Assembly: GCA_000004985.1 (NCBI GenBank)
Contig: GG738911.1
Length of the DNA: 64,000 bases
Reading direction: 5' to 3' (one strand)
DNA from: Naegleria gruberi
Lineage: Eukaryota
In this document: positions 27,436 to 57,955 of the stretch, piece after piece
How the letters are laid out: every line of letters begins with the position of its first letter
Numbering within the stretch: position 1 is the first letter of the stretch
Translations under genes and position numbers: made by a program
Notes under the pieces: generated by a model
Database searches by the model: none
The model's input: the letters and a program-made list of their open reading frames with translations, nothing else
What the model was told of the DNA's origin: nothing

Positions 27436-27485
27436 NNNNNNNNNNNNNNNNNNNNNNNNNNNNNNNNNNNNNNNNNNNNNNNNNN
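27436..27485. other. Scaffold gap of 50 N.
   Basis: Run of n. Confidence 0.99.
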
Positions 27486-28485: not shown

Positions 28486-31400
28486 NNNNNNNNNNNNNNN
28501 NNNNNNNNNNNNNNNNNNNNNNNNNNNNNNNNNNNNNNNNNNNNNNNNNNNNNNNNNNNNNNNNNNNNNNNNNNNNNNNNNNNNNNNNNNNNNNNNNNNN
28601 NNNNNNNNNNNNNNNNNNNNNNNNNNNNNNNNNNNNNNNNNNNNNNNNNNNNNNNNNNNNNNNNNNNNNNNNNNNNNNNNNNNNNNNNNNNNNNNNNNNN
28701 NNNNNNNNNNNNNNNNNNNNNNNNNNNNNNNNNNNNNNNNNNNNNNNNNNNNNNNNNNNNNNNNNNNNNNNNNNNNNNNNNNNNNNNNNNNNNNNNNNNN
28801 NNNNNNNNNNNNNNNNNNNNNNNNNNNNNNNNNNNNNNNNNNNNNNNNNNNNNNNNNNNNNNNNNNNNNNNNNNNNNNNNNNNNNNNNNNNNNNNNNNNN
28901 NNNNNNNNNNNNNNNNNNNNNNNNNNNNNNNNNNNNNNNNNNNNNNNNNNNNNNNNNNNNNNNNNNNNNNNNNNNNNNNNNNNNNNNNNNNNNNNNNNNN
29001 NNNNNNNNNNNNNNNNNNNNNNNNNNNNNNNNNNNNNNNNNNNNNNNNNNNNNNNNNNNNNNNNNNNNNNNNNNNNNNNNNNNNNNNNNNNNNNNNNNNN
29101 NNNNNNNNNNNNNNNNNNNNNNNNNNNNNNNNNNNNNNNNNNNNNNNNNNNNNNNNNNNNNNNNNNNNNNNNNNNNNNNNNNNNNNNNNNNNNNNNNNNN
29201 NNNNNNNNNNNNNNNNNNNNNNNNNNNNNNNNNNNNNNNNNNNNNNNNNNNNNNNNNNNNNNNNNNNNNNNNNNNNNNNNNNNNNNNNNNNNNNNNNNNN
29301 NNNNNNNNNNNNNNNNNNNNNNNNNNNNNNNNNNNNNNNNNNNNNNNNNNNNNNNNNNNNNNNNNNNNNNNNNNNNNNNNNNNNNNNNNNNNNNNNNNNN
29401 NNNNNNNNNNNNNNNNNNNNNNNNNNNNNNNNNNNNNNNNNNNNNNNNNNNNNNNNNNNNNNNNNNNNNNNNNNNNNNNNNNNNNNNNNNNNNNNNNNNN
29501 NNNNNNNNNNNNNNNNNNNNNNNNNNNNNNNNNNNNNNNNNNNNNNNNNNNNNNNNNNNNNNNNNNNNNNNNNNNNNNNNNNNNNNNNNNNNNNNNNNNN
29601 NNNNNNNNNNNNNNNNNNNNNNNNNNNNNNNNNNNNNNNNNNNNNNNNNNNNNNNNNNNNNNNNNNNNNNNNNNNNNNNNNNNNNNNNNNNNNNNNNNNN
29701 NNNNNNNNNNNNNNNNNNNNNNNNNNNNNNNNNNNNNNNNNNNNNNNNNNNNNNNNNNNNNNNNNNNNNNNNNNNNNNNNNNNNNNNNNNNNNNNNNNNN
29801 NNNNNNNNNNNNNNNNNNNNNNNNNNNNNNNNNNNNNNNNNNNNNNNNNNNNNNNNNNNNNNNNNNNNNNNNNNNNNNNNNNNNNNNNNNNNNNNNNNNN
29901 NNNNNNNNNNNNNNNNNNNNNNNNNNNNNNNNNNNNNNNNNNNNNNNNNNNNNNNNNNNNNNNNNNNNNNNNNNNNNNNNNNNNNNNNNNNNNNNNNNNN
30001 NNNNNNNNNNNNNNNNNNNNNNNNNNNNNNNNNNNNNNNNNNNNNNNNNNNNNNNNNNNNNNNNNNNNNNNNNNNNNNNNNNNNNNNNNNNNNNNNNNNN
30101 NNNNNNNNNNNNNNNNNNNNNNNNNNNNNNNNNNNNNNNNNNNNNNNNNNNNNNNNNNNNNNNNNNNNNNNNNNNNNNNNNNNNNNNNNNNNNNNNNNNN
30201 NNNNNNNNNNNNNNNNNNNNNNNNNNNNNNNNNNNNNNNNNNNNNNNNNNNNNNNNNNNNNNNNNNNNNNNNNNNNNNNNNNNNNNNNNNNNNNNNNNNN
30301 NNNNNNNNNNNNNNNNNNNNNNNNNNNNNNNNNNNNNNNNNNNNNNNNNNNNNNNNNNNNNNNNNNNNNNNNNNNNNNNNNNNNNNNNNNNNNNNNNNNN
30401 NNNNNNNNNNNNNNNNNNNNNNNNNNNNNNNNNNNNNNNNNNNNNNNNNNNNNNNNNNNNNNNNNNNNNNNNNNNNNNNNNNNNNNNNNNNNNNNNNNNN
30501 NNNNNNNNNNNNNNNNNNNNNNNNNNNNNNNNNNNNNNNNNNNNNNNNNNNNNNNNNNNNNNNNNNNNNNNNNNNNNNNNNNNNNNNNNNNNNNNNNNNN
30601 NNNNNNNNNNNNNNNNNNNNNNNNNNNNNNNNNNNNNNNNNNNNNNNNNNNNNNNNNNNNNNNNNNNNNNNNNNNNNNNNNNNNNNNNNNNNNNNNNNNN
30701 NNNNNNNNNNNNNNNNNNNNNNNNNNNNNNNNNNNNNNNNNNNNNNNNNNNNNNNNNNNNNNNNNNNNNNNNNNNNNNNNNNNNNNNNNNNNNNNNNNNN
30801 NNNNNNNNNNNNNNNNNNNNNNNNNNNNNNNNNNNNNNNNNNNNNNNNNNNNNNNNNNNNNNNNNNNNNNNNNNNNNNNNNNNNNNNNNNNNNNNNNNNN
30901 NNNNNNNNNNNNNNNNNNNNNNNNNNNNNNNNNNNNNNNNNNNNNNNNNNNNNNNNNNNNNNNNNNNNNNNNNNNNNNNNNNNNNNNNNNNNNNNNNNNN
31001 NNNNNNNNNNNNNNNNNNNNNNNNNNNNNNNNNNNNNNNNNNNNNNNNNNNNNNNNNNNNNNNNNNNNNNNNNNNNNNNNNNNNNNNNNNNNNNNNNNNN
31101 NNNNNNNNNNNNNNNNNNNNNNNNNNNNNNNNNNNNNNNNNNNNNNNNNNNNNNNNNNNNNNNNNNNNNNNNNNNNNNNNNNNNNNNNNNNNNNNNNNNN
31201 NNNNNNNNNNNNNNNNNNNNNNNNNNNNNNNNNNNNNNNNNNNNNNNNNNNNNNNNNNNNNNNNNNNNNNNNNNNNNNNNNNNNNNNNNNNNNNNNNNNN
31301 NNNNNNNNNNNNNNNNNNNNNNNNNNNNNNNNNNNNNNNNNNNNNNNNNNNNNNNNNNNNNNNNNNNNNNNNNNNNNNNNNNNNNNNNNNNNNNNNNNNN

Positions 31401-31839
31401 NNNNNNNNNNNNNNNNNNNNNNNNNNNNNNNNNNNNNNNNNNNNNNNNNNNNNNNNNNNNNNNNNNNNNNNNNNNNNNNNNNNNNNNNNNNNNNNNNNNN
31501 NNNNNNNNNNNNNNNNNNNNNNNNNNNNNNNNNNNNNNNNNNNNNNNNNNNNNNNNNNNNNNNNNNNNNNNNNNNNNNNNNNNNNNNNNNNNNNNNNNNN
31601 NNNNNNNNNNNNNNNNNNNNNNNNNNNNNNNNNNNNNNNNNNNNNNNNNNNNNNNNNNNNNNNNNNNNNNNNNNNNNNNNNNNNNNNNNNNNNNNNNNNN
31701 NNNNNNNNNNNNNNNNNNNNNNNNNNNNNNNNNNNNNNNNNNNNNNNNNNNNNNNNNNNNNNNNNNNNNNNNNNNNNNNNNNNNNNNNNNNNNNNNNNNN
31801 NNNNNNNNNNNNNNNNNNNNNNNNNNNNNNNNNNNNNNN
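28486..31839. other. Assembly gap of 3,354 N.
   Basis: Run of n. Confidence 0.99.
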
Positions 31840-33595: not shown

Positions 33596-35590
33596 TTACA
33601 AATTATTTTCACTGTAATAACTTGCTTCCAATTGTAATGAATTTGGATTTCCTCTCCTTACTAATCCAGTTGTCTCTTGTGAATATTGCAAATTATTCTT
33701 CTTCTTCCAATAAATTCCACAAGCAAGGAATAAAATTAAAGTTCCAATTAAAGATAATGTCAATAACACAATAGTTACAATAAATCCAGTAATGCTTTGA
33801 CCAAGTAAGTGTTGAGATGAAGAAGATTTCACATTCAATTGAGTGACAGATGGCAGAAGTGTAAATTGGGAGAAACCTTCACTAGGACCCTCAATTGCAA
33901 TGAAATAAATTTGAGAATTTGATGAAGGATTATCCAATGATTGAATGTGATTTGAAAGCATTCTTACTGAATAGTGTTGATTAGTTGGTTTGAAATTTTG
34001 GCCAACCAGCACAATGACATCTTTTCCAGATAAGGTAGAACATGAAAGAGACAATCTTGAATGAGATGGAATGGTTATTTGATAGAGAGCTGATTCTCCT
34101 GATTGGATTTTCTTGGAAATTGTCGAATCTTGAATGAGTGGAATTCCATTTTCTCTTTCGAATGAAGTTATTGGATTTGGTTGAGGAGATGGAATTGGAT
34201 GTGGACCTTTCGAATAACTAGGAATTGGTCTTGGAATAGATGGCGATGGTTTTGGTGGAACAATAGTTGGTTCAGGTTTTGGTGGAATTACAGAAGGTTC
34301 TGGTCTAGGTCTGGAAGGAGATGGAATTGGTTGAGGTGGAACGGATGGAGAAGGAGTTGGAGTTGGAGGAATGAAAATCTTTTTGGCAACAACATATAGT
34401 TGATACGAGTTGACCATCACATTTTCTTGACAATTCAAATGGAAAGAACCATCCTTAAAAGTGGCCTTTTCTGGAGAAATGTGCAAATTGTCCTTTCCAA
34501 ATGCAAATGCGCATGCAAGTGTTGAATTATCTAATTCCTTATCCAAATTTGAAATTGTGAATTCTCTCCAAGATTTCACACCAAAACTCAATAAATTCTG
34601 AGAAATATCGAATGAGTAAATTGAATAATAATCTGATTTGGAAACTGGATCGATAATTAATTGACCAACTGTCTCATTTCTTACTAGCTTGAATGATGGT
34701 TCAACTTCTTGACTGATTTCAGTATTATCAGTGGTCAATTGGAAAGAAAATTCCAATTTATCTTTTTCTAAACTAAACTCTAACATTCTAGAATAATAAA
34801 TGGAATATTCTTGTTCAAAGTTTGCTGAACTACCCTCAAAGGCGCAAATAGCAAATGTATATGAAGTATCCGAACCGGTTCTCGTGTCAATTTCCAATTT
34901 CCAAGGTCCTTCAAATGGTTGATCATCAAATAAAAGTTCAAAGATTTTCGATTTTGTGTGAACTTTGAATATTCTGAATGATTTTGGATCCACATTGAAA
35001 ATTGAACTAGATTTGATAAATTCAACAGTAATGGCATTGAAATCGAAAACATCACTTGTTGATACTGTAATATGATAAAGATCAAATACTCCTAAAATGG
35101 TTAATGGTTGTTGAATAGTATGTGGAAATATAAAATCTTGATATGAACTGACATCTCTATTAGCTAGAGTGAATTGACCCTTAAGGTCACTATTAGGATT
35201 GACTGTCACTTGCAAAATATCCTTATCTGACCAACCTGTCACAAATTTTGACAAGAAAAATGGATCAATTGTAACTGGTTCTCCAAAATTGATAACATGT
35301 TCTTCTCTCTTGAATTTCTTGGAAATGAGCAAAACAATAAATTCAGTAGCTCTGATATCTTCTGAACAATCTAAAAAGTATTTGGAAACCTTGTCAACTG
35401 GATCTTGTGAAAAGGTTGGTTTGTCATCACTGTATTCAATTGTAGAATAGGCACCATTTGAATCCTTAATTAAATAAGCACATGTCATTTCACTGAATTT
35501 GACATCAATGGCATTTCCATTCTTATCAGAAAATGACATTGAAGGAAGGAATTTGAAAATTCTGCCCTCATCATAATTCATAATTTCCAA
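33596..35590 (-). CDS. The same glycoprotein, C-terminal part: ectodomain, Pro-rich stalk, single TM and a short cytoplasmic tail.
   Basis: Pro-rich stalk PPTPTPSPSVPPQPIPSPSRPRPEPSVIPPKPEP..., then TM ITGFIVTIVLLTLSLIGTLILFLACGIYW and a basic tail. There is no credible independent promoter. It overlaps the upstream ORF by 13 nt in a different frame. Confidence 0.5.
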   Translation of the reverse strand: MEIMNYDEGRIFKFLPSMSFSDKNGNAIDVKFSEMTCAYLIKDSNGAYSTIEYSDDKPTFSQDPVDKVSKYFLDCSEDIRATEFIVLLISKKFKREEHVINFGEPVTIDPFFLSKFVTGWSDKDILQVTVNPNSDLKGQFTLANRDVSSYQDFIFPHTIQQPLTILGVFDLYHITVSTSDVFDFNAITVEFIKSSSIFNVDPKSFRIFKVHTKSKIFELLFDDQPFEGPWKLEIDTRTGSDTSYTFAICAFEGSSANFEQEYSIYYSRMLEFSLEKDKLEFSFQLTTDNTEISQEVEPSFKLVRNETVGQLIIDPVSKSDYYSIYSFDISQNLLSFGVKSWREFTISNLDKELDNSTLACAFAFGKDNLHISPEKATFKDGSFHLNCQENVMVNSYQLYVVAKKIFIPPTPTPSPSVPPQPIPSPSRPRPEPSVIPPKPEPTIVPPKPSPSIPRPIPSYSKGPHPIPSPQPNPITSFERENGIPLIQDSTISKKIQSGESALYQITIPSHSRLSLSCSTLSGKDVIVLVGQNFKPTNQHYSVRMLSNHIQSLDNPSSNSQIYFIAIEGPSEGFSQFTLLPSVTQLNVKSSSSQHLLGQSITGFIVTIVLLTLSLIGTLILFLACGIYWKKKNNLQYSQETTGLVRRGNPNSLQLEASYYSENNL

Positions 35591-37386
35591 CCTTGATAAT
35601 AATCTAATTTGAAACTTTCCAAAATATTATACGATTCGTCAACTACATTATTAGAATCTCCTTCAAACTTGTCTAAAACATAAAAAGGTCTCGATTGAGT
35701 TTCTGGTCTAATTTCAACTTTTTCAAAATAAACTGTCACATTCAAATTATCCAAATTATGATATTCAATATTTCTTGCATAATTCACAAACACTGCTTCC
35801 CCTAATACGGCAGTACTCTTATCGTAAATCCACAAACCAAATACTAAATTAGTGTTATTGTAAACTGTTGGATCAAATGCCCATTTAGCTTCTCCTAATT
35901 TAGGAATATCAGGTTGGAATAATTCAAAACTATTGGTTGATTCATTAAGAATTGTGACTCTCATTGAGAACGGATCCACATGTGGTTGCAATGAATTAGT
36001 ATACTCAAAATAAATCATATTATCCGAAACATCCAAACGATGTGCTGTAAAATCAATTGAAAATGCAAACTTTAAACTGAGTGGCTTTTGAATTGTCGAA
36101 GGAGCTGCATACTTTGAATAAATTGCAGTATTTTGATTGTTAATCATAAAACTTCCTGACAATTTGGAATTCTTATCAAAACTTGCAATCAAATTGTCAT
36201 ATTGTTCTCCATTTTTGAGTTCATAACTAGCAATCATGTATGAAGTAATTCCACACTCAGTTCCAAATTTGCATACAGCTCTAGTTCTGTCATCATACTT
36301 TCTGGCAAACATGAACAATGTAAAATCAGAAGTCAATTGTCTATCTGAACATGTCAACACAAACGATTGATAACTATTCACACTATTTCTGGAGGTAACT
36401 TCCAAAACTTGAGAGTTTTCATCCACGACTATTTTTCCATTCTCTTCATATGCACAAACTATTGACATTGGGTCAACAAATTTTGCAGTACGATCTAGTG
36501 ATGAATATGAAACAAATCCTGATTTTTTCGAATAATCAAATGAGATGCTCATTCGTTGATGGAGAGGAGTTGTTCCAACATTGAAAACTGACAGATCGAT
36601 GGCAATCAAATTGTAATCATAAGGTTCTGGAATTTTCACACCACCATCATAAGCATACTCTAATTGAATAGCTGGACTGCTGTCAATTTGATCTGGATCA
36701 ATGACAGGAGCATTGTCATATGACAGGAGAAGAATCATTTGTGAACTGTAATAAAACAATTGTCTTTCGATATCTCGTGGATAACTAATTCTAAGTTTTT
36801 GTTTGAAATCTCCTTCAACAATGGCTTTTACATAATATTGGAAAGCAATATAGTTTCTCTTCATGGATTGAAGTGTTGAAAAGGAAATTTCAAAAGAACT
36901 ATCTAAATGGTATAGTCCAGTATTATTGAAAGGAATAGTTTCCTTCTTGACGAAAGGATTCGACAATTTAACTCCGATTAGTTCCATTTCGTATGGATTG
37001 ATATTCTTCATCAATGCTCTGTTGAGCACCACTTGAACACTGCCATCTGTCATTCCACTTGCCAATGTAACATTTGACATGTCGAGAGTGAATATCCATG
37101 AAGCTAAATATTTTTTGGCATCAAATGGCGGAGTTGGATCGAAAATGTACTGCGTTTTAGTGTTGAGTACATAACTTCCTTGCAAATCTTTAAAATTCAA
37201 GCTCATTGCACCATGCAGGTTTGGAGTGGAAAGTTGGTAAATTGGAAGAATCGAATAATCTATCGGATAGGTGTAAGATAAATGTTGAAAGTGTCGGACA
37301 GGTGTTGAGTCAACTAGATGAAACAACGCTGTGAAGAGAAGCTGCACAACTAATAGGATGTGAGCGAAAGTGTGCACTTGTTTCAT
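35578..37386 (-). CDS. Large secreted/type-I membrane glycoprotein, N-terminal part; ORF 1 of 2.
   Basis: ATG at 37386. The N-terminal MKQVHTFAHILLVVQLLFTALFHLV is signal-peptide-like, followed by a 600-aa N/S/Y-rich ectodomain. It ends at TGA in an ATGA overlap with the next ORF. Confidence 0.55.
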   Translation of the reverse strand: MKQVHTFAHILLVVQLLFTALFHLVDSTPVRHFQHLSYTYPIDYSILPIYQLSTPNLHGAMSLNFKDLQGSYVLNTKTQYIFDPTPPFDAKKYLASWIFTLDMSNVTLASGMTDGSVQVVLNRALMKNINPYEMELIGVKLSNPFVKKETIPFNNTGLYHLDSSFEISFSTLQSMKRNYIAFQYYVKAIVEGDFKQKLRISYPRDIERQLFYYSSQMILLLSYDNAPVIDPDQIDSSPAIQLEYAYDGGVKIPEPYDYNLIAIDLSVFNVGTTPLHQRMSISFDYSKKSGFVSYSSLDRTAKFVDPMSIVCAYEENGKIVVDENSQVLEVTSRNSVNSYQSFVLTCSDRQLTSDFTLFMFARKYDDRTRAVCKFGTECGITSYMIASYELKNGEQYDNLIASFDKNSKLSGSFMINNQNTAIYSKYAAPSTIQKPLSLKFAFSIDFTAHRLDVSDNMIYFEYTNSLQPHVDPFSMRVTILNESTNSFELFQPDIPKLGEAKWAFDPTVYNNTNLVFGLWIYDKSTAVLGEAVFVNYARNIEYHNLDNLNVTVYFEKVEIRPETQSRPFYVLDKFEGDSNNVVDESYNILESFKLDYYQGWKL

Positions 37387-41273: not shown

Positions 41274-44200
41274 ATGATACATACAACACCTTCATCTGGA
41301 ACAAGTGAAACCTCTCACTATTTACTTCCGAACCAAGGTAATGAGAACAATCGAATATTTTCCTCTCCTTCATCATTAGAATATTCTCTTTCATCTCTGG
41401 GAAGTCATAGTCCGCAGTTCTATCACAGTCCACCTACGAGTCCTGAATCTTTGAATTTAATGGAAAATCATAATGAAAATCATCGACTAGTTCAAGATCA
41501 ACATGAAGATTTAAAATATTTGGACGATAATAGTGGACAACATCAATATTCAATGGAAACTGGTCAGAGTTCAATAACAACAGAGAATCATCATAATAAT
41601 TGTGATAGTTATGAAGTTTCGTTGAATATTGATGATGGACACATGAATGGACATGAGACAGATGAGTTTAGAGTAGACACAGGTATTCGGTCAGTGCTTA
41701 GACGATTTTCGTGGCTTACACTTGGGTCCTCTTCGAGTACTACTCCAAGGAGTCGTCATTCCATTGGATTACCCACAACCAACAATTTATTTAGTCCACC
41801 CATTACAGAGACGAGAAAGTTCAGTATTGGGCAAAAGCAACATCCAAATACGGCATTCGTTTTGATGAGTCCACAAAGTCCACGAACCACCACTCCATCA
41901 CCAACTACAAGCTCATCAAGTATGGCTCATGAATTGGAGCAGCAAAATCATGAATCTGTGGAAACTCCAGTGTCTTCATTGGTTGACCAAGATATTGCTC
42001 AATCAGGAGATGTTACTCCAGTTCAGTCCAACAATTATCGAGCAAATACATATTCTCCACCTCCATTCACCAGAACTATTTCTGTAGTCTTAAACGACAT
42101 TACGAATTCACCTGTTGGTGTCGAGAGAAGGAGACGAGATTCAATTGCCTCGAATAAGAAAGTTAATGAACGAGCTAATAGTATTGCATACCGTACTTCG
42201 AATATCACCAATCTGATTAATAACACGTCATTCCACAGCACAAAGAAGCAACTTGAAAAGGAAAAGAAGAGGAGAGGAGAATCATGTTCCAAATTTTGTC
42301 ATTCCTTCTTTACCATTTCAAATATTTTGATGGGAATTTTCATTTTGCAAGCAATTGTTTGCTTGATTTTTGGAATTTCAATTATGAGAGCTGGTGGTGC
42401 CATTTTGGATGTGAAAATTCGTGAATATCAATTCTTACAAATCAGGGCATTTGTAGAGGAACGTATCAGTAGCTTCACCTCAAAATACACAACCATGACT
42501 AATCACATGATGGAAGGTTTGAAGGGAATTCCCATCAATGATAATGTTGCCCTTCTGAGATTCTTTGATTATGTAGCAATTACCTTTGGAACTGATACCT
42601 CACTGAATCGAATGGAATTCTATAGAATGGATGATTCATTCTCCATGCTTAGAGATTTCAATAATGGAAAATCTGTAATTTCAATCAATTCCATTTCGAA
42701 TCCATCCATGTTTTCGACCTATTTGTGGCCTAAGACTCTTACTTTTGTGGAGAACCCAAATGGATACTATGCCTCTTCAAGTGATACTTCCTATTCGATT
42801 TATAAGAATTACATGTATGGACCCATACTCGAATTGAACGAAATATTTAACAATTCGGCCGTGCTCAATAATTTTATTCTCAACAATCAGGAAGTATTTT
42901 GTAAATCACTCTCTAGCAATATTCCATCTAATTACAACAATTTCAAATGGGTACCAAGCAAATCCATTCAAAATTCGAGTATTTTCCTGCATTATCCAGT
43001 TTATATCAGTAACAATTACAATCATACCATTGTGTCTCCCAATACGAGAAAGATGTTCATTGTAAATTCAGATCAAAATTTGGAGAATAGCTACTTGTTT
43101 GGAGTTTTCAGTTTGCACTTTTCAATTGATAGATTTACAACCTTGTTAAATGTTCAGAATGAGAGATTCTACTTGCAATCCGAGTATTCTTCAAATACAA
43201 GTTTTATCATGAATACGTGGGGTGATATTTTGGCTACTAGAGGAGATGGAAACGAATCTCTACACAATATTCAACTCATTTACAAAACCATCATGAAACA
43301 TGGTCTTAAAAAGAATTGTGAAGTTGAGAGTGAAGTTATAGACATTCCAAATACTAGATTGACTGCTAGATTGTCGTATACTTGTGATGGTCATGGATTG
43401 AATTTGGTATTGGTTGTTGAAATGGACAATTCAGATTCTTTCATTCCTCTATTATTGGCAAATAATTCAATTCTTTCGTTTGTGGCATCATTTTTGCTGA
43501 TTATCGTGTCTATCATTGTAATGATTGCAGTTCTGAGAGCTCTCAATACATCAATGGAACGAATGTCGAAGAAATTACACAGAATTACAAGACTAAAACA
43601 AAGGGAAAGCGAGGGAGGCAAATCATTCAGTCAAATCATTTCAGATTTCTTCCCAAACACGTCAATGACTGTTTTCTATGAAGTGAGAGAAATTGAAAAT
43701 CTAATCATGTTATTGGGTCAAGGAATGGATGCTTTGAAAAAGTTTCTTCCCGAACCGTTTGTTAAAGAGATTATACTATCAAAACCACTGCCTTTCAATG
43801 TTGCAACAAAGAAGCACTTGACAATCTTGTTTTGTGAGCTGGCAGGTTGTGATAAGATGGCAGATACTATTGATATTCCTCTCTTTTTGGAAATGATTAC
43901 AGAGTACAGTTCAATAATGTGTAAAATCATTCAGGATCATAAGGGTATGATTGATCGATTTGATGGAGGAACAGCCATGTGCTTATTCTCCTTCCAGGAT
44001 AACACTTTAATTCCAACTGAACAAAATCAAGAAGTAAATGCATGTCATGCTGCCATGGATATCATTTACATGATGGAGGATTTCAAAACCAAGTGGCAAA
44101 AACGTACAGGGCATCCAATTCACATTGAGATTGGAATTAATTCTGGAGAGATTTATTATGGAAATTTCAATTGCACTGATTCTAGATCAAGTTATTCAGT

Positions 44201-44657
44201 GCTCGGTGCAAGCTTAGATATTGCCTCTACTTTGCAACGTTTCAATTTTTCATACTCTACACAGGTTCTCATTGGAGAGGAGACATTCTTGAAAGTTAAG
44301 GATATTTTCGTGTGTTATTTTGTGGATTTGGTGAGATTTTCTGGCTACAAGAAAAGGAGGGGAATGAAAATATATTCATTAGAATGTCCAGTTCGAGAGA
44401 GCACCGATTTGGAGAGGAAGATTGCACTGGATTTGGAACAAGTTCAGCAAAAAATCATGGAAAAGAGTTATGCCTCTGCTTTGAGTTTATGTGGACAAGT
44501 CATGCTGTTCAATGATAGACCACAAGTGAGTTATTTGCACAATCGATTGAGCCATGCAAAAGAAGAGAGCGAAAAGGTGATTCCCAATGATAATGATCTT
44601 TTTTCTACAGTGGCAAACTTTGGTATTGATCCAGAGGAGATTTTATCATTCTTGTAA
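41274..44657 (+). CDS. Receptor-type class III nucleotidyl (adenylyl/guanylyl) cyclase-like protein: S/T/Q-rich N-terminus, TM1, ~400-aa extracytoplasmic domain, TM2, C-terminal cyclase homology domain.
   Basis: ATG at 41274, TAA at 44655-44657. TMs FFTISNILMGIFILQAIVCLIFGISIM and ILSFVASFLLIIVSIIVMIAVL. Cyclase homology domain LTILFCELAGCD...IDRFDGGTAMCLF...IGINSGEIYYGNF...YSVLGASLDIASTLQ with a class-III-like order of motifs but substituted key residues. Confidence 0.75.
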   Translation: MIHTTPSSGTSETSHYLLPNQGNENNRIFSSPSSLEYSLSSLGSHSPQFYHSPPTSPESLNLMENHNENHRLVQDQHEDLKYLDDNSGQHQYSMETGQSSITTENHHNNCDSYEVSLNIDDGHMNGHETDEFRVDTGIRSVLRRFSWLTLGSSSSTTPRSRHSIGLPTTNNLFSPPITETRKFSIGQKQHPNTAFVLMSPQSPRTTTPSPTTSSSSMAHELEQQNHESVETPVSSLVDQDIAQSGDVTPVQSNNYRANTYSPPPFTRTISVVLNDITNSPVGVERRRRDSIASNKKVNERANSIAYRTSNITNLINNTSFHSTKKQLEKEKKRRGESCSKFCHSFFTISNILMGIFILQAIVCLIFGISIMRAGGAILDVKIREYQFLQIRAFVEERISSFTSKYTTMTNHMMEGLKGIPINDNVALLRFFDYVAITFGTDTSLNRMEFYRMDDSFSMLRDFNNGKSVISINSISNPSMFSTYLWPKTLTFVENPNGYYASSSDTSYSIYKNYMYGPILELNEIFNNSAVLNNFILNNQEVFCKSLSSNIPSNYNNFKWVPSKSIQNSSIFLHYPVYISNNYNHTIVSPNTRKMFIVNSDQNLENSYLFGVFSLHFSIDRFTTLLNVQNERFYLQSEYSSNTSFIMNTWGDILATRGDGNESLHNIQLIYKTIMKHGLKKNCEVESEVIDIPNTRLTARLSYTCDGHGLNLVLVVEMDNSDSFIPLLLANNSILSFVASFLLIIVSIIVMIAVLRALNTSMERMSKKLHRITRLKQRESEGGKSFSQIISDFFPNTSMTVFYEVREIENLIMLLGQGMDALKKFLPEPFVKEIILSKPLPFNVATKKHLTILFCELAGCDKMADTIDIPLFLEMITEYSSIMCKIIQDHKGMIDRFDGGTAMCLFSFQDNTLIPTEQNQEVNACHAAMDIIYMMEDFKTKWQKRTGHPIHIEIGINSGEIYYGNFNCTDSRSSYSVLGASLDIASTLQRFNFSYSTQVLIGEETFLKVKDIFVCYFVDLVRFSGYKKRRGMKIYSLECPVRESTDLERKIALDLEQVQQKIMEKSYASALSLCGQVMLFNDRPQVSYLHNRLSHAKEESEKVIPNDNDLFSTVANFGIDPEEILSFL

Positions 44658-50570: not shown

Positions 50571-50905
50571 TTAATTGAATGGAGTAACGGTCAATCCTTT
50601 TTGAACTGCAGGTCTTTCACCAACTCTATCAATGTAGGCCTTAATGTGTGGATAGGTTTCCCATTTGAATTGTTCAACAACTGGTTCACCATAGAATGGC
50701 AACACTCTCAACCATGGGAAAATAGCCATATCAGCAATGGTGTATTCATCTCCAATAATATACTTCTTGTCTCCTTCAGCCAAATGCTTTTCCAAAACTC
50801 CCCACAATCGTTGAGTTTCTTTCAAGTATCTTTCCTTTCCAACTGGAACATCAGTTGGGCAGTATTTGTGGAAGAATCCCATTTGTCCAGACATTGGTCC
50901 CAATC
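50571..50905 (-). CDS. GST exon 2, C-terminal alpha-helical domain.
   Basis: ...YIIGDEYTIADMAIFPWLRVLPFYGEPVVEQFKWETYPHIKAYIDRVGERPAVQKG, then a stop. Confidence 0.75.
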
Positions 50906-51033
50906 CTATTATTCATCAATTGATCATTCATATCAGTGCGTAGGATTAAATGTATTGAATATTGTAAAATTATTGAAAATTATTGTAAAATATTAAATAT
51001 TAATCCAAATTGATCAAGTGATTCAAAACATAC
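50906..51033 (-). other. GST intron (128 nt, GTATGT...AATAG).
   Basis: Joining gives ...WLAWQIAG|LGPMSGQMGFFHKY, the conserved GST motif that spans the N- and C-terminal domains. Confidence 0.7.
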
Positions 51034-51427
51034 CAGCAATTTGCCAAGCTAACCATTGCAAACATTGATAATATTCCTTTGATCCTTTTGGAGGAATAAA
51101 CTTTCCACTTTTATCAGCCAAATATTGCAAAATTGCTCCCGATTCAAACAATGCCAATCCATTTTCCTGATCAACAATTGCTGGGATCTTATTATTTGGA
51201 GAAATCTTTAAGAATTCTGGAGAAAATTGTTCTCCTTTTCTAATATCAATGGTGTGTGCCTTATATTCGAGTCCCATTTCTTCCAAAGCAATGGCAATCT
51301 TATGACCATTTGGAGTAGCAAGTGAGTAGAGATCGATCATTTTGTTTCTATATTGTTGTTGGTGTTGTTGATTTTGTAGCAGAGAGCTTTGAGTTTTATT
51401 GCTTCCGATTGCAAATTTCTTGATCAA
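51034..51427 (-). CDS. Glutathione S-transferase (Nu/YfcG-like), exon 1, N-terminal thioredoxin-like domain.
   Basis: IDLYSLATPNGHKIAIALEEMGLEY...NNKIPAIVD...LALFESGAILQYLADK. Ends in phase 1 at a GTATGT donor. Confidence 0.75.
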
Positions 51428-51972: not shown

Positions 51973-54309
51973 ATGACAACAGACAGCCATCATCACTCGC
52001 TTCTCATACGACAATACATCTTTCTATCCTCCATTCTTCTTCTCCTTTTCGTCTTTTCACAAGTTTCGTCTCAAGATTATTACATTTCGAATACGGGATT
52101 TTTAGCTCCACAACCAGATGGAATAACATACAATGCAGGGAGTTTATATGTAGCCCTGAATGCTACCAATAGAATAGTCAAGTTTGACCTCACCTCGCAA
52201 CAAGTTTCGTATATTGCTGGAACTGGCCAGGAAGGTTTCGGTGGAGAAAACGAAATTGCGACCGAATCTCCTCTCCGAGCTCCATCAATTGCAAAACTGG
52301 CCTCTGATGGTACCATTTACATTACCGATTGTTCAAATGATAGAATTAGAAAGATTGTTGCTGGCAATGTTTCGACTCTAGTTTCGTCTATTTCATTGAG
52401 TCGACCTTTCGGATTAGATATTCATCCAATAAGTGGTGATTTGTACATTTCAGAATTAACTTCACGAATTGTCAAATTGACACCAAGTTCTGGAATAGCA
52501 GAAGCTTTGACTTTGAATGGAAATGGTTACAATGGAGATCAAATTCTAGCAATTTCTGCCAATGTCAACAATCCATTGCATATCCACGTGAAAAGTAATG
52601 GAGAATATTACTTTTTGGATTATGGAAATAATGCTATTCGAAAGGTGGATCTAAATGGATATATTTCTACAATAGTTTTGGGTGCATTTACTGCTATTGG
52701 TGGCGATCCTTTAATTAGTAATGAATTTTATTATGGAGGAGTTGGACAAATTTTCAAATATTCGAATGGATCATCTGTTCTAATTGCTGGTGGAGGAGTT
52801 TTGGATGTGGATGATGTTGATGCTAAAACTGTAATGTTTGGCCAAGTTTTTGGAATTACTTTGGGAGTGAGTGGTGAGGTTTACTTTTCAGATTATGGAA
52901 ATGGAAGAATTAGAAAGTTGGTGACATGTAGTGCAGGAACTTCCTATTCTGGCTATACTCATTCGTGTGTTTCTTGTTTTGGAGCAAGTGGTGCAGGGGC
53001 ATGTTCTGGAAATGGTGTTTGCATTAATAATGATGTTTGCGCATGTACTGTTTCAGGTTTTAGTGGAACTTATTGCAATGTTTCCGTTACTACTTGTTTT
53101 AACATTACAAGCGATCAGCCAACTACTTGTTCAGGTCATGGATCTTGCGTTTCTTTGAATAATTGTTCGTGTCTTTCTGGATATGATGCAATCGATTGCT
53201 CTGTCAACATTTCACCATTTGCAATGAGTACCAGTATTTCTTCAACCTCAGTTTCAGACTCTTCAGCAATTGGCATTCAAGCAATTTACTCTTCAGATGT
53301 TAATCCAACTTATTTCATTTGGGCTTGTACGAATTGTATCTATAAGGATTCGAATAATCAATTGCAATTTAGCAATATATCAAATACTGCCATTATTGAT
53401 GGTTCATTACTCAGTGTAGGAACTTATTCATTTACTGTTTATGGTATTTATGATAATGGACCTTCGTATCCAGCCAGAGTTTCGAATGTTGCCAATTTCC
53501 AAATCACAGTAATCAAATCAGTATTTTCTTCATCTTCGTTGGAGATTTATGGATTGCCATCGGTTGTGGTGGCTACAAACGCATCAAGCTCTCTCAACAT
53601 TATCATTCCACGACTTTCTCTCGATCAAACTCTCATTAATCAATTCTTGTCATGCAGTAACAGCTCAACAACATGTGGATTGTTAATTTCCTACAATGCT
53701 GCTCTGTCAATTACCAAGAACTCAATTACCTCCGTCATTTCAAGTTACAACGGTTACACCATGGCCAGTACAAATTTCATGAATAATACCATCACCTTTA
53801 CTCCATCTTTGAATTTTAAGGATAGTAATGCATATTCTGGCACTGAAATGATTCTCAATTTGGAGCTTACTGGTGCCACCAATTTGACCTTCTCTACTTC
53901 AGTACCAATTTATTCTTCAGCCACTCCACCACAAAGTACATCTGCAAATTCGACAGGTGGCGTGTTGGTTGATGTTTTGGGAATAGTGTCTCCATCATCA
54001 GGTAGAGCCCTCTCTGATCTTTTCACAATTACTTTTTCATCATGGACTGCAGCAGCTCAATTATTACCTTTGAAATATTCTGTTGGATTTGTAGATCCTG
54101 TTACTTCGAATGTGGTGAGAGTTACCGATTATACAGAGACCACTTCAGCTAATTTCATTCTTCCTTATCTTTCTTCGGTTTCTAATAGTAGAGGCCTTTT
54201 AGCTACTAGCTCGGTATCTGTAGTTGTTTTTGTGAATGATTCTATGGGAAATCAATATTCAAGTACTGTTCTCCCTATGCAGGAACAACGACAGAGTTGG
54301 TTTCTCTAA
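51973..54309 (+). CDS. Extracellular NHL-repeat / EGF-like (tenascin-type Cys-rich) / S-T-rich region with a signal peptide. Probably the 5' part of the GPCR gene below.
   Basis: Signal-like LLIRQYIFLSSILLLLFVFSQVSS. NHL repeats (GTIYITDCSNDRIRKI, GDLYISELTSRIVKL, EYYFLDYGNNAIRKV, EVYFSDYGNGRIRKL). EGF-like CSGNGVCINNDVCACTVSGFSGTYC...CSGHGSCVSLNNCSCLSGYDAIDC. The track ORF ends with TAA at 54307-54309 and overlaps the next ORF. Confidence 0.6.
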   Translation: MTTDSHHHSLLIRQYIFLSSILLLLFVFSQVSSQDYYISNTGFLAPQPDGITYNAGSLYVALNATNRIVKFDLTSQQVSYIAGTGQEGFGGENEIATESPLRAPSIAKLASDGTIYITDCSNDRIRKIVAGNVSTLVSSISLSRPFGLDIHPISGDLYISELTSRIVKLTPSSGIAEALTLNGNGYNGDQILAISANVNNPLHIHVKSNGEYYFLDYGNNAIRKVDLNGYISTIVLGAFTAIGGDPLISNEFYYGGVGQIFKYSNGSSVLIAGGGVLDVDDVDAKTVMFGQVFGITLGVSGEVYFSDYGNGRIRKLVTCSAGTSYSGYTHSCVSCFGASGAGACSGNGVCINNDVCACTVSGFSGTYCNVSVTTCFNITSDQPTTCSGHGSCVSLNNCSCLSGYDAIDCSVNISPFAMSTSISSTSVSDSSAIGIQAIYSSDVNPTYFIWACTNCIYKDSNNQLQFSNISNTAIIDGSLLSVGTYSFTVYGIYDNGPSYPARVSNVANFQITVIKSVFSSSSLEIYGLPSVVVATNASSSLNIIIPRLSLDQTLINQFLSCSNSSTTCGLLISYNAALSITKNSITSVISSYNGYTMASTNFMNNTITFTPSLNFKDSNAYSGTEMILNLELTGATNLTFSTSVPIYSSATPPQSTSANSTGGVLVDVLGIVSPSSGRALSDLFTITFSSWTAAAQLLPLKYSVGFVDPVTSNVVRVTDYTETTSANFILPYLSSVSNSRGLLATSSVSVVVFVNDSMGNQYSSTVLPMQEQRQSWFL

Positions 54310-56927
54310 TCGGTTCATATGCCAGCTCTTCTCTTCTCACTGTTTTCAGTTATGACACCTCTCTTTCCGCTGCCAATTCTACTTCCTCAAGTGATGTTGC
54401 ATTGGAAATTGTGAAGAGTGTAGTAATTGATCCAAAGAATCCTACCACAGCTCTCACAGCCATTCAACAAGCTACCTCAAATCCAGAGGCTGTCGATTCT
54501 CGTGTCATTACTGAATTAACTAACAAGATTAATAATTTTGTAGCAACTCTCAATACTAATTACAAAGAAGAGAGAGCTCTTTATGGATTTGTCAAATCTA
54601 AATTGGCAACTGCTGACACAACAAGAACAACAGAAATTATTTCAAATGTTTTGGCAAGTGGAAGAGGAAATCAACAATCTAAGGGAATGGCAGATAATTT
54701 GACCAATTTATTAATTTTGGGAGAAATTGCCACATTATTAACTGGTCAGGATCAATCATCAGATGTTAACGAGTTGACCAAAGTTTCCTTCACATCTTCT
54801 CAATTGGATATTGCTGTTGCCGTCTTTACTTTGGATAAAGAAATGAATGGAACCAATCAAATGATTGGAGGTGATAATTCTGTAACCATGCCATTGTCAC
54901 AAATCACGAAACAATACAATGGATTCTCTAAAGAATCTGCCACTACCATGATCACCTATGATCAAAATATTTACTCTCAATCCAATGTTAGCGTCCTAAC
55001 TTCAACAGTGACTGATTTTAAATATTATCAAAATCAACAAGTTGTAACATTGGAGAATTTATCACAAAATATTGAACTCAAATTCAAAATTACAAATTCT
55101 ACAATTGTAATGGAAAAGATTATGGAATATATCAATAGTACAACTCAATTCAATTCAACCTCAAACAGCACCCAATCCAATTCTACTCTAGTGATGGCTT
55201 GCAAATATTGGGATGAATCTGCACTTGCTTGGAGCAGTAGAGGATGCTATCTGAAAGGATACAATTTGACAAGTCAAGAAATTCTCTGTTCTTGTTCTCA
55301 CACGACAATGTTCACAACCTTTGTGGAACAAAACACTTCGACAATTCCTGCTTCAGTGAAGGAAACAGTTGCTGCCTTTTATTATGGTCAAATTGCGTTG
55401 GGAATTTTCTATTTCTTGACTTCCATTGTCATTCTTTGTTTGTTGATTATTTTCAAGAATGAACAACCAATTTCATCTCGTTTGATTACTCCATACTTGG
55501 GAATGATTGCATTGATTGTGGAATCTCTTCTCGTTTACATTACACAAAGAGGTATTTTAGTGAGACAGTTGACTTCTACTTCAACTCAAATGTGGGAATC
55601 TGGAGATACTGATGCCAACACAATTGCAAACATTGTTCTCATATTTGCGAATACCATTAATTTGACAGCCATTTTATCTTATGTCATGCAAGTGTTGAGA
55701 TTCCAAGTTATGAAATACTTGTACGATTTATTGGCCTCCAGTAGAAATAATGAAAAGAAGAGCGATAGAATTTTGACAGTTTTGAGATTCTTGACATCTT
55801 CCTCATTGTTTTCCGCTATTTTAATTGTATTTGCAGTTATTAATGTATGCTATTGGGTCTTGTGGGTTGTTTTGAGAAGAACTGGAGTCCTTCCACCAGC
55901 AACATACACCTACATTGTTTCCATTTCGTATACGGTTATCATTTTCACATTTGGTGTCATTATTACATTGGTAGCAATCTTTGACTGGGTTGGATCTTCA
56001 GCCAAAGCAGGAATCAAAGCCAAGAGAAACTCCTCACTCACCAGAGAATCCAAATTCAAAATTGAAGAAGAAATTCAGAAGGAAATGGAAAAGTTTGATA
56101 TTTTCGAAAAGATTTACACAATTCTAGTAGGAATTGATGAACCATTGTATTTCAGAACTGAAATGATTATTTATGTGATTAGTTTCGTATTTTTAATCTT
56201 AAATCAAGTTATTGGATTGGTAGGAAATGAACTTAGATATGGAAATGAAGCCTCGTACAAGAAGGCGCTAATATTCGACTCCATTTCATTTATTTTCGAA
56301 GTTCTCTACGTGTTTACCTATTTATTTGTCTTTGGAGGATACTCTCTCATTCTATTACTCATTAGCAAGGTGAAAACATACAGAAATAACAAGGAAATGA
56401 AAAAATCTGCCAAGAAAAACATCAGCCAAGGTAGAGAAATCAACGAGGACATGTCACTTGTCTTTTCCAGCGATGAAGCCACTGAATTATTCGCCAGTTT
56501 CTGCGTTAAGGAATTCTCCTCTGAAAACTTTTATCTCTACTCAGATTTGAAAGAAAATACAGACATTATCGAAGGTAATAACATGCGAAAATTGCATCCA
56601 TATCTTCACTACATTCACGACACGTATGTGAAAGATGGCGCCAACTATCAAGTGAATATTCCAAACAAGTGCAGAACTAGTTTTATGAATCTGTTCAACA
56701 AGTATGCGAATGAGGTTTTGGAAATGTTGGATTCACAACTCAGTGAAAAGATCTCAACGGAAATAAGGAGTAGTTTTGAAATTCTAGTTCAGCAAATATT
56801 TGTCAATTTGGGAGATACCTTTTCAAGATTTGTATTTACTGTGGAATTTAAGGTTTTTAAGAAAGCATATGAACTTAGACAGGATATTTTGGAGGAATCT
56901 AATGTTGTTTTAATTGATGATGAGTAA
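54297..56927 (+). CDS. GPS motif, 7TM domain and C-terminal RGS domain (adhesion-GPCR-like with a built-in GAP). It has no ATG of its own; it is probably spliced to the upstream NHL/EGF ORF.
   Basis: GPS-like CKYWDESALAWSSRGCYLKGYNLTSQEILCSCSHTTMFTTF. Seven hydrophobic helices. RGS box FASFCVKEFSSENFYLYSDL...YQVNIP...LVQQIFVNLGDTFSRFVFT. The frame is open from 54240. Confidence 0.65.
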   Translation: MVSLIGSYASSSLLTVFSYDTSLSAANSTSSSDVALEIVKSVVIDPKNPTTALTAIQQATSNPEAVDSRVITELTNKINNFVATLNTNYKEERALYGFVKSKLATADTTRTTEIISNVLASGRGNQQSKGMADNLTNLLILGEIATLLTGQDQSSDVNELTKVSFTSSQLDIAVAVFTLDKEMNGTNQMIGGDNSVTMPLSQITKQYNGFSKESATTMITYDQNIYSQSNVSVLTSTVTDFKYYQNQQVVTLENLSQNIELKFKITNSTIVMEKIMEYINSTTQFNSTSNSTQSNSTLVMACKYWDESALAWSSRGCYLKGYNLTSQEILCSCSHTTMFTTFVEQNTSTIPASVKETVAAFYYGQIALGIFYFLTSIVILCLLIIFKNEQPISSRLITPYLGMIALIVESLLVYITQRGILVRQLTSTSTQMWESGDTDANTIANIVLIFANTINLTAILSYVMQVLRFQVMKYLYDLLASSRNNEKKSDRILTVLRFLTSSSLFSAILIVFAVINVCYWVLWVVLRRTGVLPPATYTYIVSISYTVIIFTFGVIITLVAIFDWVGSSAKAGIKAKRNSSLTRESKFKIEEEIQKEMEKFDIFEKIYTILVGIDEPLYFRTEMIIYVISFVFLILNQVIGLVGNELRYGNEASYKKALIFDSISFIFEVLYVFTYLFVFGGYSLILLLISKVKTYRNNKEMKKSAKKNISQGREINEDMSLVFSSDEATELFASFCVKEFSSENFYLYSDLKENTDIIEGNNMRKLHPYLHYIHDTYVKDGANYQVNIPNKCRTSFMNLFNKYANEVLEMLDSQLSEKISTEIRSSFEILVQQIFVNLGDTFSRFVFTVEFKVFKKAYELRQDILEESNVVLIDDE

Positions 56928-56953: not shown

Positions 56954-57955
56954 TTAGTCATGTTTATTGGCTATTTCGATTGGATTTTCTTCAAGTGGTT
57001 GGGAAGAAAGTTCATTGCGAATAGTTTCGTCTTCATTTACTTTACTTTCGTCTTCGCTGGTTTCCGTAGTTTCTTTGGATTCTTCTTGTGTTGCTTTTTC
57101 AGGAGAGTTTTCCACATTTTCTTGTTCGTTCTCTTCCCTTGTTTCTTCCCTATTATCTGAGCTTTCAATTTCAACATTCGAATTTTCCATTTTGGCTAAT
57201 ATTAAAGTTTCATGGTATGAATTTCGATTATCAGGATCTAATTCCTTTACTTTCGAATGATCATGAACTGCCTTTTCATTTTGATTCAACTTTTGGAAAG
57301 CAAATCCTCTATAATAAAAAGCATGAACATTATTCGAATCTAATTCAATAACATCGGACAAATCTTGCACTGATTTTTCATTCTCTTCTAACAATGCATA
57401 GAATTTACCTCTCTTTTCCAGAGAAACCTTGAACAGGTCATCATTTTCATTCGAAAGTTCAATAACTCTTGTCAAATCAGAAATGGCATCTGAAAGATTA
57501 TCCAAAATTCGGTTCGTAAGTCCTCTATGAAACAGAGCTTGAACATGATCAGGCTCTTTCTCAATAAAAACGTTCAAATCATCGAGAGCTTCATTTTCCT
57601 TTCGAATTCTAATTCTGGAAATTCCTCGATATAGAAATACCATATCTGTTCCACCAAATTCGATAACTTTAGAAAAATCAGAATCTGCCTTCTTAAAATC
57701 CTCAATTTTGAAAAGATTCAATCCTCTATACAAGTAAGCATCCAGAAAAGTTTCGTCTAATTCAATAACTTTCGAATAATCATCAATTGCTTTCTTTCTA
57801 TCAAGTAGACATCCGAAAGCAGTCGCTCTTTGATAATAATTCATTGCATTTTCTTCCAGTTCAATAACTTTGGTAAAATATTCTACAGCTTTCGAATAAT
57901 CTTGCTCATTAAAAAACTTTCGTCCACTTTCTTTCAACGATTGAATGTTTTCCAT
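56954..57955 (-). CDS. TPR-repeat protein with an acidic C-terminal tail.
   Basis: ATG at 57955. About 7 TPR-like units (AVEYFTKVIELEENAMNYYQRA..., AIDDYSKVIELDETFLDAYLYRG..., etc.). The tail is E/D/S-rich. Confidence 0.7.
   Translation of the reverse strand: MENIQSLKESGRKFFNEQDYSKAVEYFTKVIELEENAMNYYQRATAFGCLLDRKKAIDDYSKVIELDETFLDAYLYRGLNLFKIEDFKKADSDFSKVIEFGGTDMVFLYRGISRIRIRKENEALDDLNVFIEKEPDHVQALFHRGLTNRILDNLSDAISDLTRVIELSNENDDLFKVSLEKRGKFYALLEENEKSVQDLSDVIELDSNNVHAFYYRGFAFQKLNQNEKAVHDHSKVKELDPDNRNSYHETLILAKMENSNVEIESSDNREETREENEQENVENSPEKATQEESKETTETSEDESKVNEDETIRNELSSQPLEENPIEIANKHD

Follow-up and report, generated by a model that had tools for sequence, protein, structure and literature searches.

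Two long reading frames on the + strand overlap in a 64,000-nt stretch of Naegleria gruberi DNA (the window), and the question is whether they form one gene and, if so, how the two halves are connected and what they encode. ORF1 (51973–54309; 778 aa) begins with ATG and ends with TAA; ORF2 (54297–56927; 876 aa) overlaps it by 13 nt and has no nearby ATG, the earliest in its frame being at 54687. These features are exactly as given in an initial annotation, which had read the locus as one gene with an NHL and EGF ectodomain, a stalk, a GPS, a 7TM domain and a C-terminal RGS domain, joined by a short intron and uncommon in its architecture. The single gene and its domain content are borne out by the present analysis; the intron and the rarity are not. 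In all probability 51973–56927 holds one gene, an N. gruberi member of the heterolobosean ‘7TM RGS’ receptors, whose two ORFs are split by a frameshifting indel and not by splicing. The stop codon, read from the sequence, is at 56925..56927, and a convergent TPR gene ends at 56954, 26 nt downstream of it.

Relatives of the encoded protein

The matches of the encoded protein to its homologues range from E = 0 to 1e-170, and the likeness is therefore not due to chance. A phmmer search returned 191 matches, with 99 cluster representatives at E ≤ 1e-10 and 66 at E ≤ 1e-30; most of the representatives listed align in one stretch over nearly the whole query. The named matches that were sampled come from N. 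gruberi, N. lovaniensis and Willaertia magna, and P0002, the N. fowleri member, matches query residues 7–583 of 587 with E = 2e-172. Trimmed sequences were used for the wider family alignment. A word-indexed homologue search with ORF2 alone gave three matches, probably because low-complexity words had saturated the candidates. The window gene shares homology with the family across GAIN/GPS, 7TM and RGS, and has seven TM segments followed by a C-terminal RGS box.

P0002 and Nf 7TM RGS1 are the same protein: NKDMSI and NVVYLC-stop are encoded by the published primers, and the 180-aa fragment corresponds to P0002 residues 2453–2632. Nf 7TM RGS1 is the best match of the window gene, with 45–53% identity over GAIN-7TM-RGS. 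Nevertheless, the window gene is a paralogue in the same clade and not the orthologue, because P0121 (NAEGRDRAFT_57455) is closer to Nf 7TM RGS1 (64.8% identity, against 47.7% for the window gene). Another paralogue, P0123, was considered as a tandem duplicate beside the window gene; it shares the 261-kb scaffold but lies outside the window.

Twenty-eight N. fowleri ‘7TM RGS’ proteins have been described, and EGF or lectin ectodomains occur in several of them, along with GPS motifs (Bosch, Jeck & Siderovski 2022, J Biol Chem, PMC9283941). GAP activity was demonstrated for the RGS domains of Nf 7TM RGS2–4, while assays of the RGS domain of Nf 7TM RGS1, the closest characterised relative, were uninterpretable (PMC9283941). 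What had been taken for an uncommon architecture is thus that of a large heterolobosean family, with the 99 representatives at E ≤ 1e-10 and a published N. fowleri branch; the intact N. gruberi paralogue P0004 is built alike, with NHL, GPS and RGS. Looking for the same fusion in related genomes, as the initial annotation had suggested, recovered relatives with GPS-7TM-RGS, N. fowleri P0002 among them.

The junction between the reading frames

More than 30 full-length relatives are collinear with the encoded protein across the ORF1/ORF2 junction, in agreement with the earlier view that the locus is one gene. The frame changes within 54253..54269, a zone located by tblastn HSPs, junction alignment and three-frame translation. 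Frame 1 is conserved to about 54252 and frame 0 is conserved from 54270, and the sequence therefore carries a frameshift or indel of 3n + 1 nt. Each of P0002, P0121, P0122, P0123, P0003 and P0004 gave two tblastn HSPs, which follow one another directly in the homologue and meet or overlap in the DNA at 54243–54285. For P0002, residues 1259–1736 match frame 1 up to 54282 and residues 1738–2631 match frame 0 from 54270. Residues 1736 and 1738 thus fall on overlapping DNA, and an intron has no place between them. When 12 homologues were aligned with MAFFT, conservation was found on both sides of the junction, as ‘SVSVVVFVNDSMGN’ in frame 1 and ‘SPYAGTTTELV’ in frame 0, and a gap of 5–7 residues at the junction was present in the window sequence only. 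As judged from this alignment, the passage from frame 1 to frame 0 needs 3n + 1 nt that the window lacks, and some 5–7 codons that every homologue has are missing. A single deletion of roughly 16–22 nt would account for both the missing codons and the frame shift.

Two other ways of reading the junction dispense with an indel. As assembled, ORF1 begins with a start codon of its own, encodes a signal peptide and runs to a stop codon, as would be expected if the locus held two separate genes, one for a secreted NHL-EGF protein (ORF1) and one for a GAIN-7TM-RGS protein (ORF2). This is barely credible: ORF2 overlaps ORF1, so that no promoter could fit between them; the earliest ATG available to ORF2 falls within the helical part of the GAIN domain, with no signal peptide after it; and the stalk and the GAIN domain are in one polypeptide in every full-length relative. 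A single gene joined by a short spliceosomal intron is only slightly less improbable. The initial annotation had proposed 54188–54282 or 54214–54296 for it, and the public JGI model has an intron at ∼54004–54282. These candidates are all GT...AG with lengths of 2 mod 3, so the frame would be restored; a short run of pyrimidines is present in the acceptor ...CTCCCTATGCAG, which is the one used in the public model P0001. Every one of them, however, would lose ‘SVSVVVFVNDSMGN’, which is conserved in all 12 of the aligned homologues; 54188–54282 and the JGI intron would also delete the ‘SPYAG’ block, and the JGI intron would further cost 93 aa, with the conserved ‘LLPLKYSVGF’ block among them. The candidates have an exon-like GC content of 37–39%, whereas a genuine intron of the neighbouring gene 1 kb away (50906–51033; 128 nt) has 21%. 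A 20-nt GT...AG stretch at 54263–54282 would also restore the frame, but it deletes ‘SPYAG’ and is far shorter than the 128 nt of the nearby real intron. By homology and base composition, splicing at the junction appears to be excluded.

An indel may have arisen in the cell or in the assembly. It is possible, as a serious though not the preferred reading, that errors of assembly or sequencing alone produced the frameshift, the true gene being an intact ORF of ∼1,650–1,660 codons with a naturally shorter junction loop. The two halves are long and stop-free, 48 of the 51 positions conserved at ≥85% in the family are present, the scaffold is gap-rich in the window (N = 27.7 kb), and the run ATGGGAAAT could hold the shift. 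On the other hand, the missing 5–7 codons fall exactly at the frame switch, and one real 3n + 1 deletion is simpler than a natural in-frame deletion combined with a separate 1-nt error. We lean slightly towards a true deletion that arose very recently in the haplotype sequenced. Exact-protein look-ups with P0001 and ORF1 returned no contigs, and hence no second copy of the locus against which a real mutation could be told from an artefact. The receptor gene is not decayed: its ORFs are stop-free outside the junction, and its retention of family-conserved positions is within the range of intact paralogues.

The ectodomain

From its N-terminus, the product of the frameshifted gene has a signal peptide, an NHL propeller of six blades, a pair of EGF modules and a glycosylated stalk; these are followed by a GAIN-like domain that carries the GPS, a 7TM domain of GPCR fold and a cytoplasmic RGS box. 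The ATG and the predicted signal peptide are at 51973..52071 (+), with the predicted cleavage between MTTDSHHHSLLIRQYIFLSSILLLLFVFSQVSS and QD; reading of the sequence shows a basic n-region, then a hydrophobic core and then a c-region of small residues. The propeller, of the teneurin-NHL type, occupies 52075..52947 (+). Pfam TEN_NHL (E = 5.6e-11) and NHL (E = 4.8e-6) both match ORF1 over the gathering score, in keeping with the NHL domain called before; the four repeats then counted become six, because the blade signature xRI[RV]K occurs at aa 66, 123, 164, 220, 258 and 311. The EGF modules had also been called before, and two of them are placed at 52966..53199 (+) by Pfam, by their cysteine spacing and by tblastn, in which the EGF arrays of paralogues align to this interval. 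EGF_2 (E = 3.7e-6) and EGF_Teneurin (E = 3.8e-6) each match two stretches above the gathering score.

The Ser/Thr-rich, N-glycosylation-rich extracellular stalk (53200..54252, +) was delimited by family collinearity. It is collinear with P0002, P0121, P0122 and P0123, is conserved in the family and ends in the conserved block ‘...LLPLKYSVGF...VVVFVNDSMGN’. The interval has no Pfam match of its own and no REJ match. It is possibly a divergent REJ-like module: in the remote family member P0194 a true REJ domain (E = 4e-28) stands at the stalk position, before GPS-7TM-RGS.

The GAIN-like domain and the GPS

A GAIN-like juxtamembrane domain, consisting of a helical and then a beta subdomain with the GPS at its end, was recognized at 54270..55313 (+) by AF2 modelling and Foldseek. 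The model has helices at aa 7–150 and strands at aa 219–354, the beta subdomain having a pLDDT of only 30–55, and the best Foldseek matches are the GAIN and 7TM domains of CD97 (8ikj, E = 6.4e-5) and the GAIN/HormR crystal structure of BAI3 (4dlo_A, E = 6.2e-3). The GPS motif, CKYWDESALAWSSRGCYLKGYNLTSQEILCSCSHT/TMF, lies at 55200..55313 (+), where a regular expression finds the string C-x2-W-x6-W-x4-C-x13-C-x-C-x-H-T-T-x-F, in agreement with the canonical C/W/C/C-x-C-x-H pattern. The earlier claim of a GPS is supported by Pfam GPS PF01825, which matches ORF2 with 28.1–29.9 bits against a cutoff of 22.5 (E = 8e-7 to 3e-6).

The putative cleavage site is between T345 and T346 in a translation begun at 54270, T346 being coded from nt 55305. 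The motif is kept in all 31 family members compared, 30 of which have H-T-T and one H-A-T. The His at −2 and the Thr at +1 are thus conserved in the family, while −1 is Thr; as H-T-T replaces the canonical H-L-T/S, self-cleavage is uncertain. After the putative site comes a T-x-F-x-x-F-[VIL] strand, which resembles the tethered-agonist pattern of adhesion GPCRs.

The seven-transmembrane domain

ORF2 has seven hydrophobic segments by hydropathy and seven long helices in the AlphaFold2 model (pLDDT 81.8), as had been read from the sequence before. The 7TM domain, which has a GPCR fold, spans 55350..56402 (+), with helices at approximately 55350–55451, 55488–55574, 55611–55748, 55800–55880, 55896–56039, 56151–56234 and 56247–56402. 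The 7tm_2 match that the initial annotation had led us to expect was not obtained: neither 7tm_2 (PF00002) nor another GPCR family of Pfam matched at E ≤ 10 in any of 17 members (the window protein and 16 relatives). A family profile gave no match among PDB sequences, and fold searches with the 7TM domain had no preference for adhesion receptors. The receptor is adhesion-GPCR-like in layout only, and neither Pfam nor the PDB profile places its 7TM domain in a GPCR class.

The RGS box

The C-terminal cytoplasmic RGS box (FCVKEFSSENFYLY ... YQVNIPNKCR ... NLGDTFSRFVFT) lies at 56463..56864 (+), as found by Pfam, phmmer and family alignment. Pfam RGS PF00615 matches ORF2 with 26.0 bits against a cutoff of 23.9 (E = 1.3e-5), which sustains the RGS call made earlier, and phmmer against the PDB matches the box to RGS16 (E = 0.008). 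E752, N753, N796, D849 and R853 are invariant in the RGS family alignment; they correspond to RGS4 E87, N88, N128, D163 and R167, the Gα switch-contact residues conserved in RGS domain GAPs. In the ‘EVN’ motif, the window RGS has Q in place of the family E.

The public gene model

The public N. gruberi model P0001 (‘predicted protein [Naegleria gruberi]’, 1125 aa) is 100% identical to the query. Its junction intron, ∼54004–54282, is wrong by homology and composition. A second intron, 55551–56469 (about 918 nt), removes TM3–TM7 and causes the RGS box to be read in the wrong frame, so that the gene appears in databases with NHL and EGF alone. The main practical value of the present work is the correction of this annotation, which adds one more member, with the less common NHL-propeller ectodomain, to the family of receptor-GAPs. 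An adhesion-type receptor with its own Gα GAP does exist; its publication for N. fowleri, the sister species, dates from 2022, and it is thus no discovery here.

A possible mode of action

The present analysis shows the domain content of the receptor, its collinearity with relatives, the frameshift, the GPCR fold and the conservation of the RGS contact residues; its topology, self-cleavage at the GPS, GAP activity and control by a ligand we infer. By homology, the protein would span the plasma membrane and expose its propeller, EGF modules and stalk on the outer side, and the RGS box would act as a GTPase-activating protein for one or more of the many Naegleria Gα subunits. A fast-exchanging Gα would thereby be kept off, like that of Arabidopsis AtRGS1 and of N. 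fowleri 7TM RGS2–4. A ligand or contact acting on the ectodomain and the GAIN/7TM module might then alter the GAP activity or the location of the receptor.

It is conceivable, though we think it unlikely, that the heterolobosean GAIN/GPS-7TM is truly homologous to the adhesion-GPCR/polycystin module, and not convergent or shuffled, and that T-x-F-x-x-F-[VIL] is a tethered agonist that switches the fused RGS and not an exchange function. If so, a GAIN-tethered 7TM receptor would be present in Discoba, and so near the eukaryote root, and the protein would be an ‘inverse’ adhesion receptor that signals by GAP release.

Comparison with known systems

Among the Pfam profiles, those of teneurin modules, TEN_NHL and EGF_Teneurin, fit the ORF1 ectodomain best. 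Only isolated modules are shared: the window gene lacks the YD shell and the toxin-like C-terminus, and its membrane topology is different. Polycystin-1 and PKDREJ likewise have a long stretch that is glycosylated and rich in beta structure ahead of the GPS, and P0194 has a genuine REJ domain, unlike the stalk of the window gene. However, their GPS is coupled to an 11-TM channel-associated domain, whereas the window gene has seven TM segments with a GPCR fold and no PLAT.

The metazoan adhesion GPCRs (class B2; CD97/ADGRE5, BAI3/ADGRB3 and the latrophilins) share with the window gene adhesive repeats and a GAIN domain that ends in a GPS directly before TM1, although the beta subdomain is modelled here with low pLDDT. 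The window family differs from them in having no secretin/adhesion-type (7tm_2) match and in its H-T-T motif. A C-terminal RGS domain, present in the window gene, is not listed for these receptors in the literature that we searched.

AtRGS1 and the 7TM-RGS proteins of plants, Trichomonas and other bikonts have, by layout, the same 7TM domain followed by a cytoplasmic RGS box, and for plants and other bikonts a receptor-GAP logic acting on self-activating Gα is presumed (PMC9283941, PMC3971589, PMC8584482). Unlike the window gene, AtRGS1 has, according to the literature, no large ectodomain and no GAIN/GPS.

The closest likeness in sequence is to the N. fowleri 7TM RGS proteins. Nf 7TM RGS1 has an ectodomain of ∼1,250 aa of EGF repeats, whereas the window gene has an NHL propeller and two EGF modules only; P0121, the N. 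gruberi orthologue of Nf 7TM RGS1, has a weak B_lectin match under the Pfam cutoff. The window gene also differs in carrying the frameshift. Nevertheless, they belong to the same family by sequence, and share the layout of an EGF-containing ectodomain, a GPS, a 7TM domain and a C-terminal RGS box.

Domain content and structure of the receptor gene

The two open reading frames have the extents first described for them. ORF1 (51973-54309, + strand; 778 aa) runs from an ATG to a TAA stop; ORF2 (54297-56927, + strand; 876 aa) lies in a frame that is open from about 54237, with its first ATG only at 54687. The NHL, EGF, GPS and RGS domains of the initial annotation all scored above their Pfam gathering scores: TEN_NHL (E=5.6e-11), NHL (E=4.8e-6), EGF_2 (E=3.7e-6) and EGF_Teneurin (E=3.8e-6) in ORF1, and GPS (28.1-29.9 bits, cutoff 22.5) and RGS (26.0 bits, cutoff 23.9) in ORF2. 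The NHL propeller carries six blade signatures, rather than the four originally counted, and there are two EGF modules. Hydropathy reveals seven hydrophobic segments C-terminal to the GPS, and 25 N-glycosylation sequons fall in the predicted ectodomain, compared with one in the C-terminal tail. The observation made on 51973-56927 is confirmed. The gene resembles an adhesion GPCR in layout, yet membership of 7tm_2 was not found when it was tested.

The C-terminal half (885 aa) was modelled with AlphaFold2 from a 7-sequence alignment (mean pLDDT 62.8), giving a helical subdomain, a low-confidence beta subdomain, seven TM helices and, at the C-terminus, a helical domain. Its closest PDB fold in Foldseek was inactive CD97 (GAIN+7TM, 8ikj, E=6.4e-5); the BAI3 GAIN/HormR crystal structure (4dlo_A, E=6.2e-3) was also among the best matches. 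The RGS box can be aligned to RGS16 and retains the residues that do not vary in the family, E752/N753 (S-x-E-N), N796 (V-N), D849 and R853, which we take to be the equivalents of the RGS4–G-alpha-i1 contacts E87/N88, N128, D163 and R167.

The public model of the gene

The window is N. gruberi DNA: the joined ORF1 and ORF2 translation is 100% identical to the GenBank entry P0001, ‘predicted protein [Naegleria gruberi]’. This 1125-aa model contains a second ‘intron’ of ~918 nt (55551-56469) that removes TM3-TM7, after which the RGS region is read out of frame, as the tail ‘AMKPLNYSPVSALRNSPLKTFISTQI’, to a stop near 56548. Consequently, the precomputed Pfam list of P0001 holds NHL and EGF only, and the model conceals in the databases that this is a 7TM-RGS gene. 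We consider the correction of this mis-modelled gene to be the main value of the finding.

The junction between the two reading frames

When six relatives were compared with the region by tblastn, each gave two HSPs, consecutive in the relative and abutting or overlapping in the DNA. For P0002, a N. fowleri relative, residues 1259-1736 matched 52897-54282 in the ORF1 frame, and residues 1738-2631 matched 54270-56915 in the ORF2 frame. This collinearity upholds the proposal that the two ORFs are one gene. In an alignment of 12 relatives, conservation in the first frame continues to ‘...SVSVVVFVNDSMGN’, ending near 54252, and that in the second begins at 54270 with ‘SPYAGTTTELV’, which corresponds to the family's ‘SP-F-N-G-T-S-S-Q-L’. 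Only 17 nt separate the conserved blocks, compared with 11-13 residues in the relatives; the frame switch must therefore lie within about 54253-54269. There, 3n+1 nt are missing, and 5-7 codons common to all 12 aligned relatives are absent. Judged from these alignments, ORF1 and ORF2 form one gene with no intron at the junction.

The short intron by which the ORFs were initially joined does not survive this comparison, because both candidates would delete conserved residues and are exon-like in GC content. That at 54188-54282 would remove the ‘VVVFVNDSMGN’ block and ‘SPYAG’, and that at 54214-54296 the ‘VVVFVNDSMGN’ block; the public model's intron, at about 54004-54282, was rejected for the loss of both. 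Candidate introns at the junction have 37-39% GC, as do the flanking exons. As a local reference for a real Naegleria intron we used that of a two-exon neighbouring gene (50571-51427, - strand; glutathione S-transferase-like by eye), which is 128 nt long (50906-51033, - strand; GTATGT...TAG) with 21% GC.

The missing bases could be an artefact of assembly, or a recent mutation could truly have removed them from the haplotype that was sequenced. An independent copy of the locus was looked for and none was found. Because a single 3n+1 deletion would account for the missing codons as well as the frameshift, we lean slightly towards a real deletion, and hold an artefact to be slightly the less favoured reading. 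Outside the junction the gene shows no decay: neither ORF has internal stops, and 48 of the 51 family positions with a conservation of 85% or more are kept, within the range of intact paralogues. One family-conserved Glu (‘EVN’) in the RGS is replaced by Gln.

Surroundings of the gene

The window has a GC content of about 35%. Runs of N (811-25061, 26094-26143, 27436-27485 and 28486-31839), which are scaffold gaps or masking, total 27,705 of 64,000 bases, so that only the part from about 32 to 64 kb is informative. Two minus-strand ORFs, 33596-35590 (664 aa) and 35578-37386 (602 aa), neither with a Pfam match, overlap by 13 nt in the same geometry as ORF1 and ORF2, and may represent a further gene that an intron or a frameshift interrupts. 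Another signalling gene, a 1127-aa ORF (41274-44657, + strand) with an adenylate/guanylate cyclase catalytic domain (PF00211, E=4.7e-5), lies 7 kb upstream of the receptor gene. A TPR-repeat protein gene (56954-57955, - strand) is convergent with the receptor gene; their stop codons are 26 nt apart, and the 3' UTRs must therefore overlap or be very short.

An expanded family in heteroloboseans

The architecture had been thought uncommon; instead, the adhesion-type layout with an RGS domain is already published as an expanded family in Naegleria. When 1.84 billion cluster representatives were searched exhaustively by phmmer, with the GPS-7TM-RGS part as query, 191 matched at E<=1e-3 (99 at E<=1e-10, 66 at E<=1e-30), and most of the matches listed cover nearly the full query in one stretch. 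The top match was P0002; sampled names among the others were N. gruberi, N. lovaniensis and Willaertia magna, the remainder being metagenome contigs. N. fowleri has 28 ‘7TM RGS’ proteins (Bosch, Jeck and Siderovski 2022, PMC9283941). In Nf 7TM RGS2-4 the RGS domain acts as a GAP on specific Nf G-alpha subunits, self-activating ones among them, and the GAP assay of Nf 7TM RGS1 (NF0014590) was uninterpretable (PMC9283941). Primers for the latter encode NKDMSI... and ...NVVYLC* (PMC9283941), and the 180-aa fragment agrees exactly, in length and ends, with P0002 residues 2453-2632; the best match of our gene is therefore Nf 7TM RGS1. On pairwise identity and in a neighbour-joining tree, N. gruberi P0121 (NAEGRDRAFT_57455; 64.8% identity) is the orthologue of Nf 7TM RGS1, and our gene is a sister paralogue of that pair (47.7% and 45.5%). 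A second member, P0123 (NAEGRDRAFT_74131; 42-50% identical), lies outside the window on the same 261,328-bp scaffold, which suggests local duplication. 7TM-RGS proteins as a class are known in plants and Trichomonas and in many further lineages (PMC3971589).

Proposed function and comparison with known systems

The protein has the domain order, GPCR fold and conserved RGS contact residues described here, and belongs to a family with demonstrated GAP activity. It would act as a plasma-membrane receptor-GAP: the NHL/EGF/stalk ectodomain and GAIN module would sense a ligand or contact, the RGS box would speed GTP hydrolysis on Naegleria G-alpha subunits, after the AtRGS1 paradigm, and signalling would follow relief of GAP activity. 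The strand after a putative GPS cleavage may serve as a tethered ligand.

The GPS (C-x2-W-x6-W-x4-C-x13-C-x-C-x-H-T-T-x-F; 55200-55313, + strand) differs from the canonical type, in which the tripeptide is H-L-T/S. Across 31 aligned family members it is H-T-T, save for one H-A-T, and is followed by T-x-F-x-x-F-[VIL]. The family's ectodomains are modular, including EGF arrays with a weak match to a lectin, NHL arrays with GPS (N. gruberi P0004) and, in two remote members from metagenome contigs, an RCC1 propeller with GPS and RGS (P0146) and REJ with GPS and RGS (P0194). The REJ-GPS pairing of P0194 is otherwise the hallmark of polycystin-1-type proteins.
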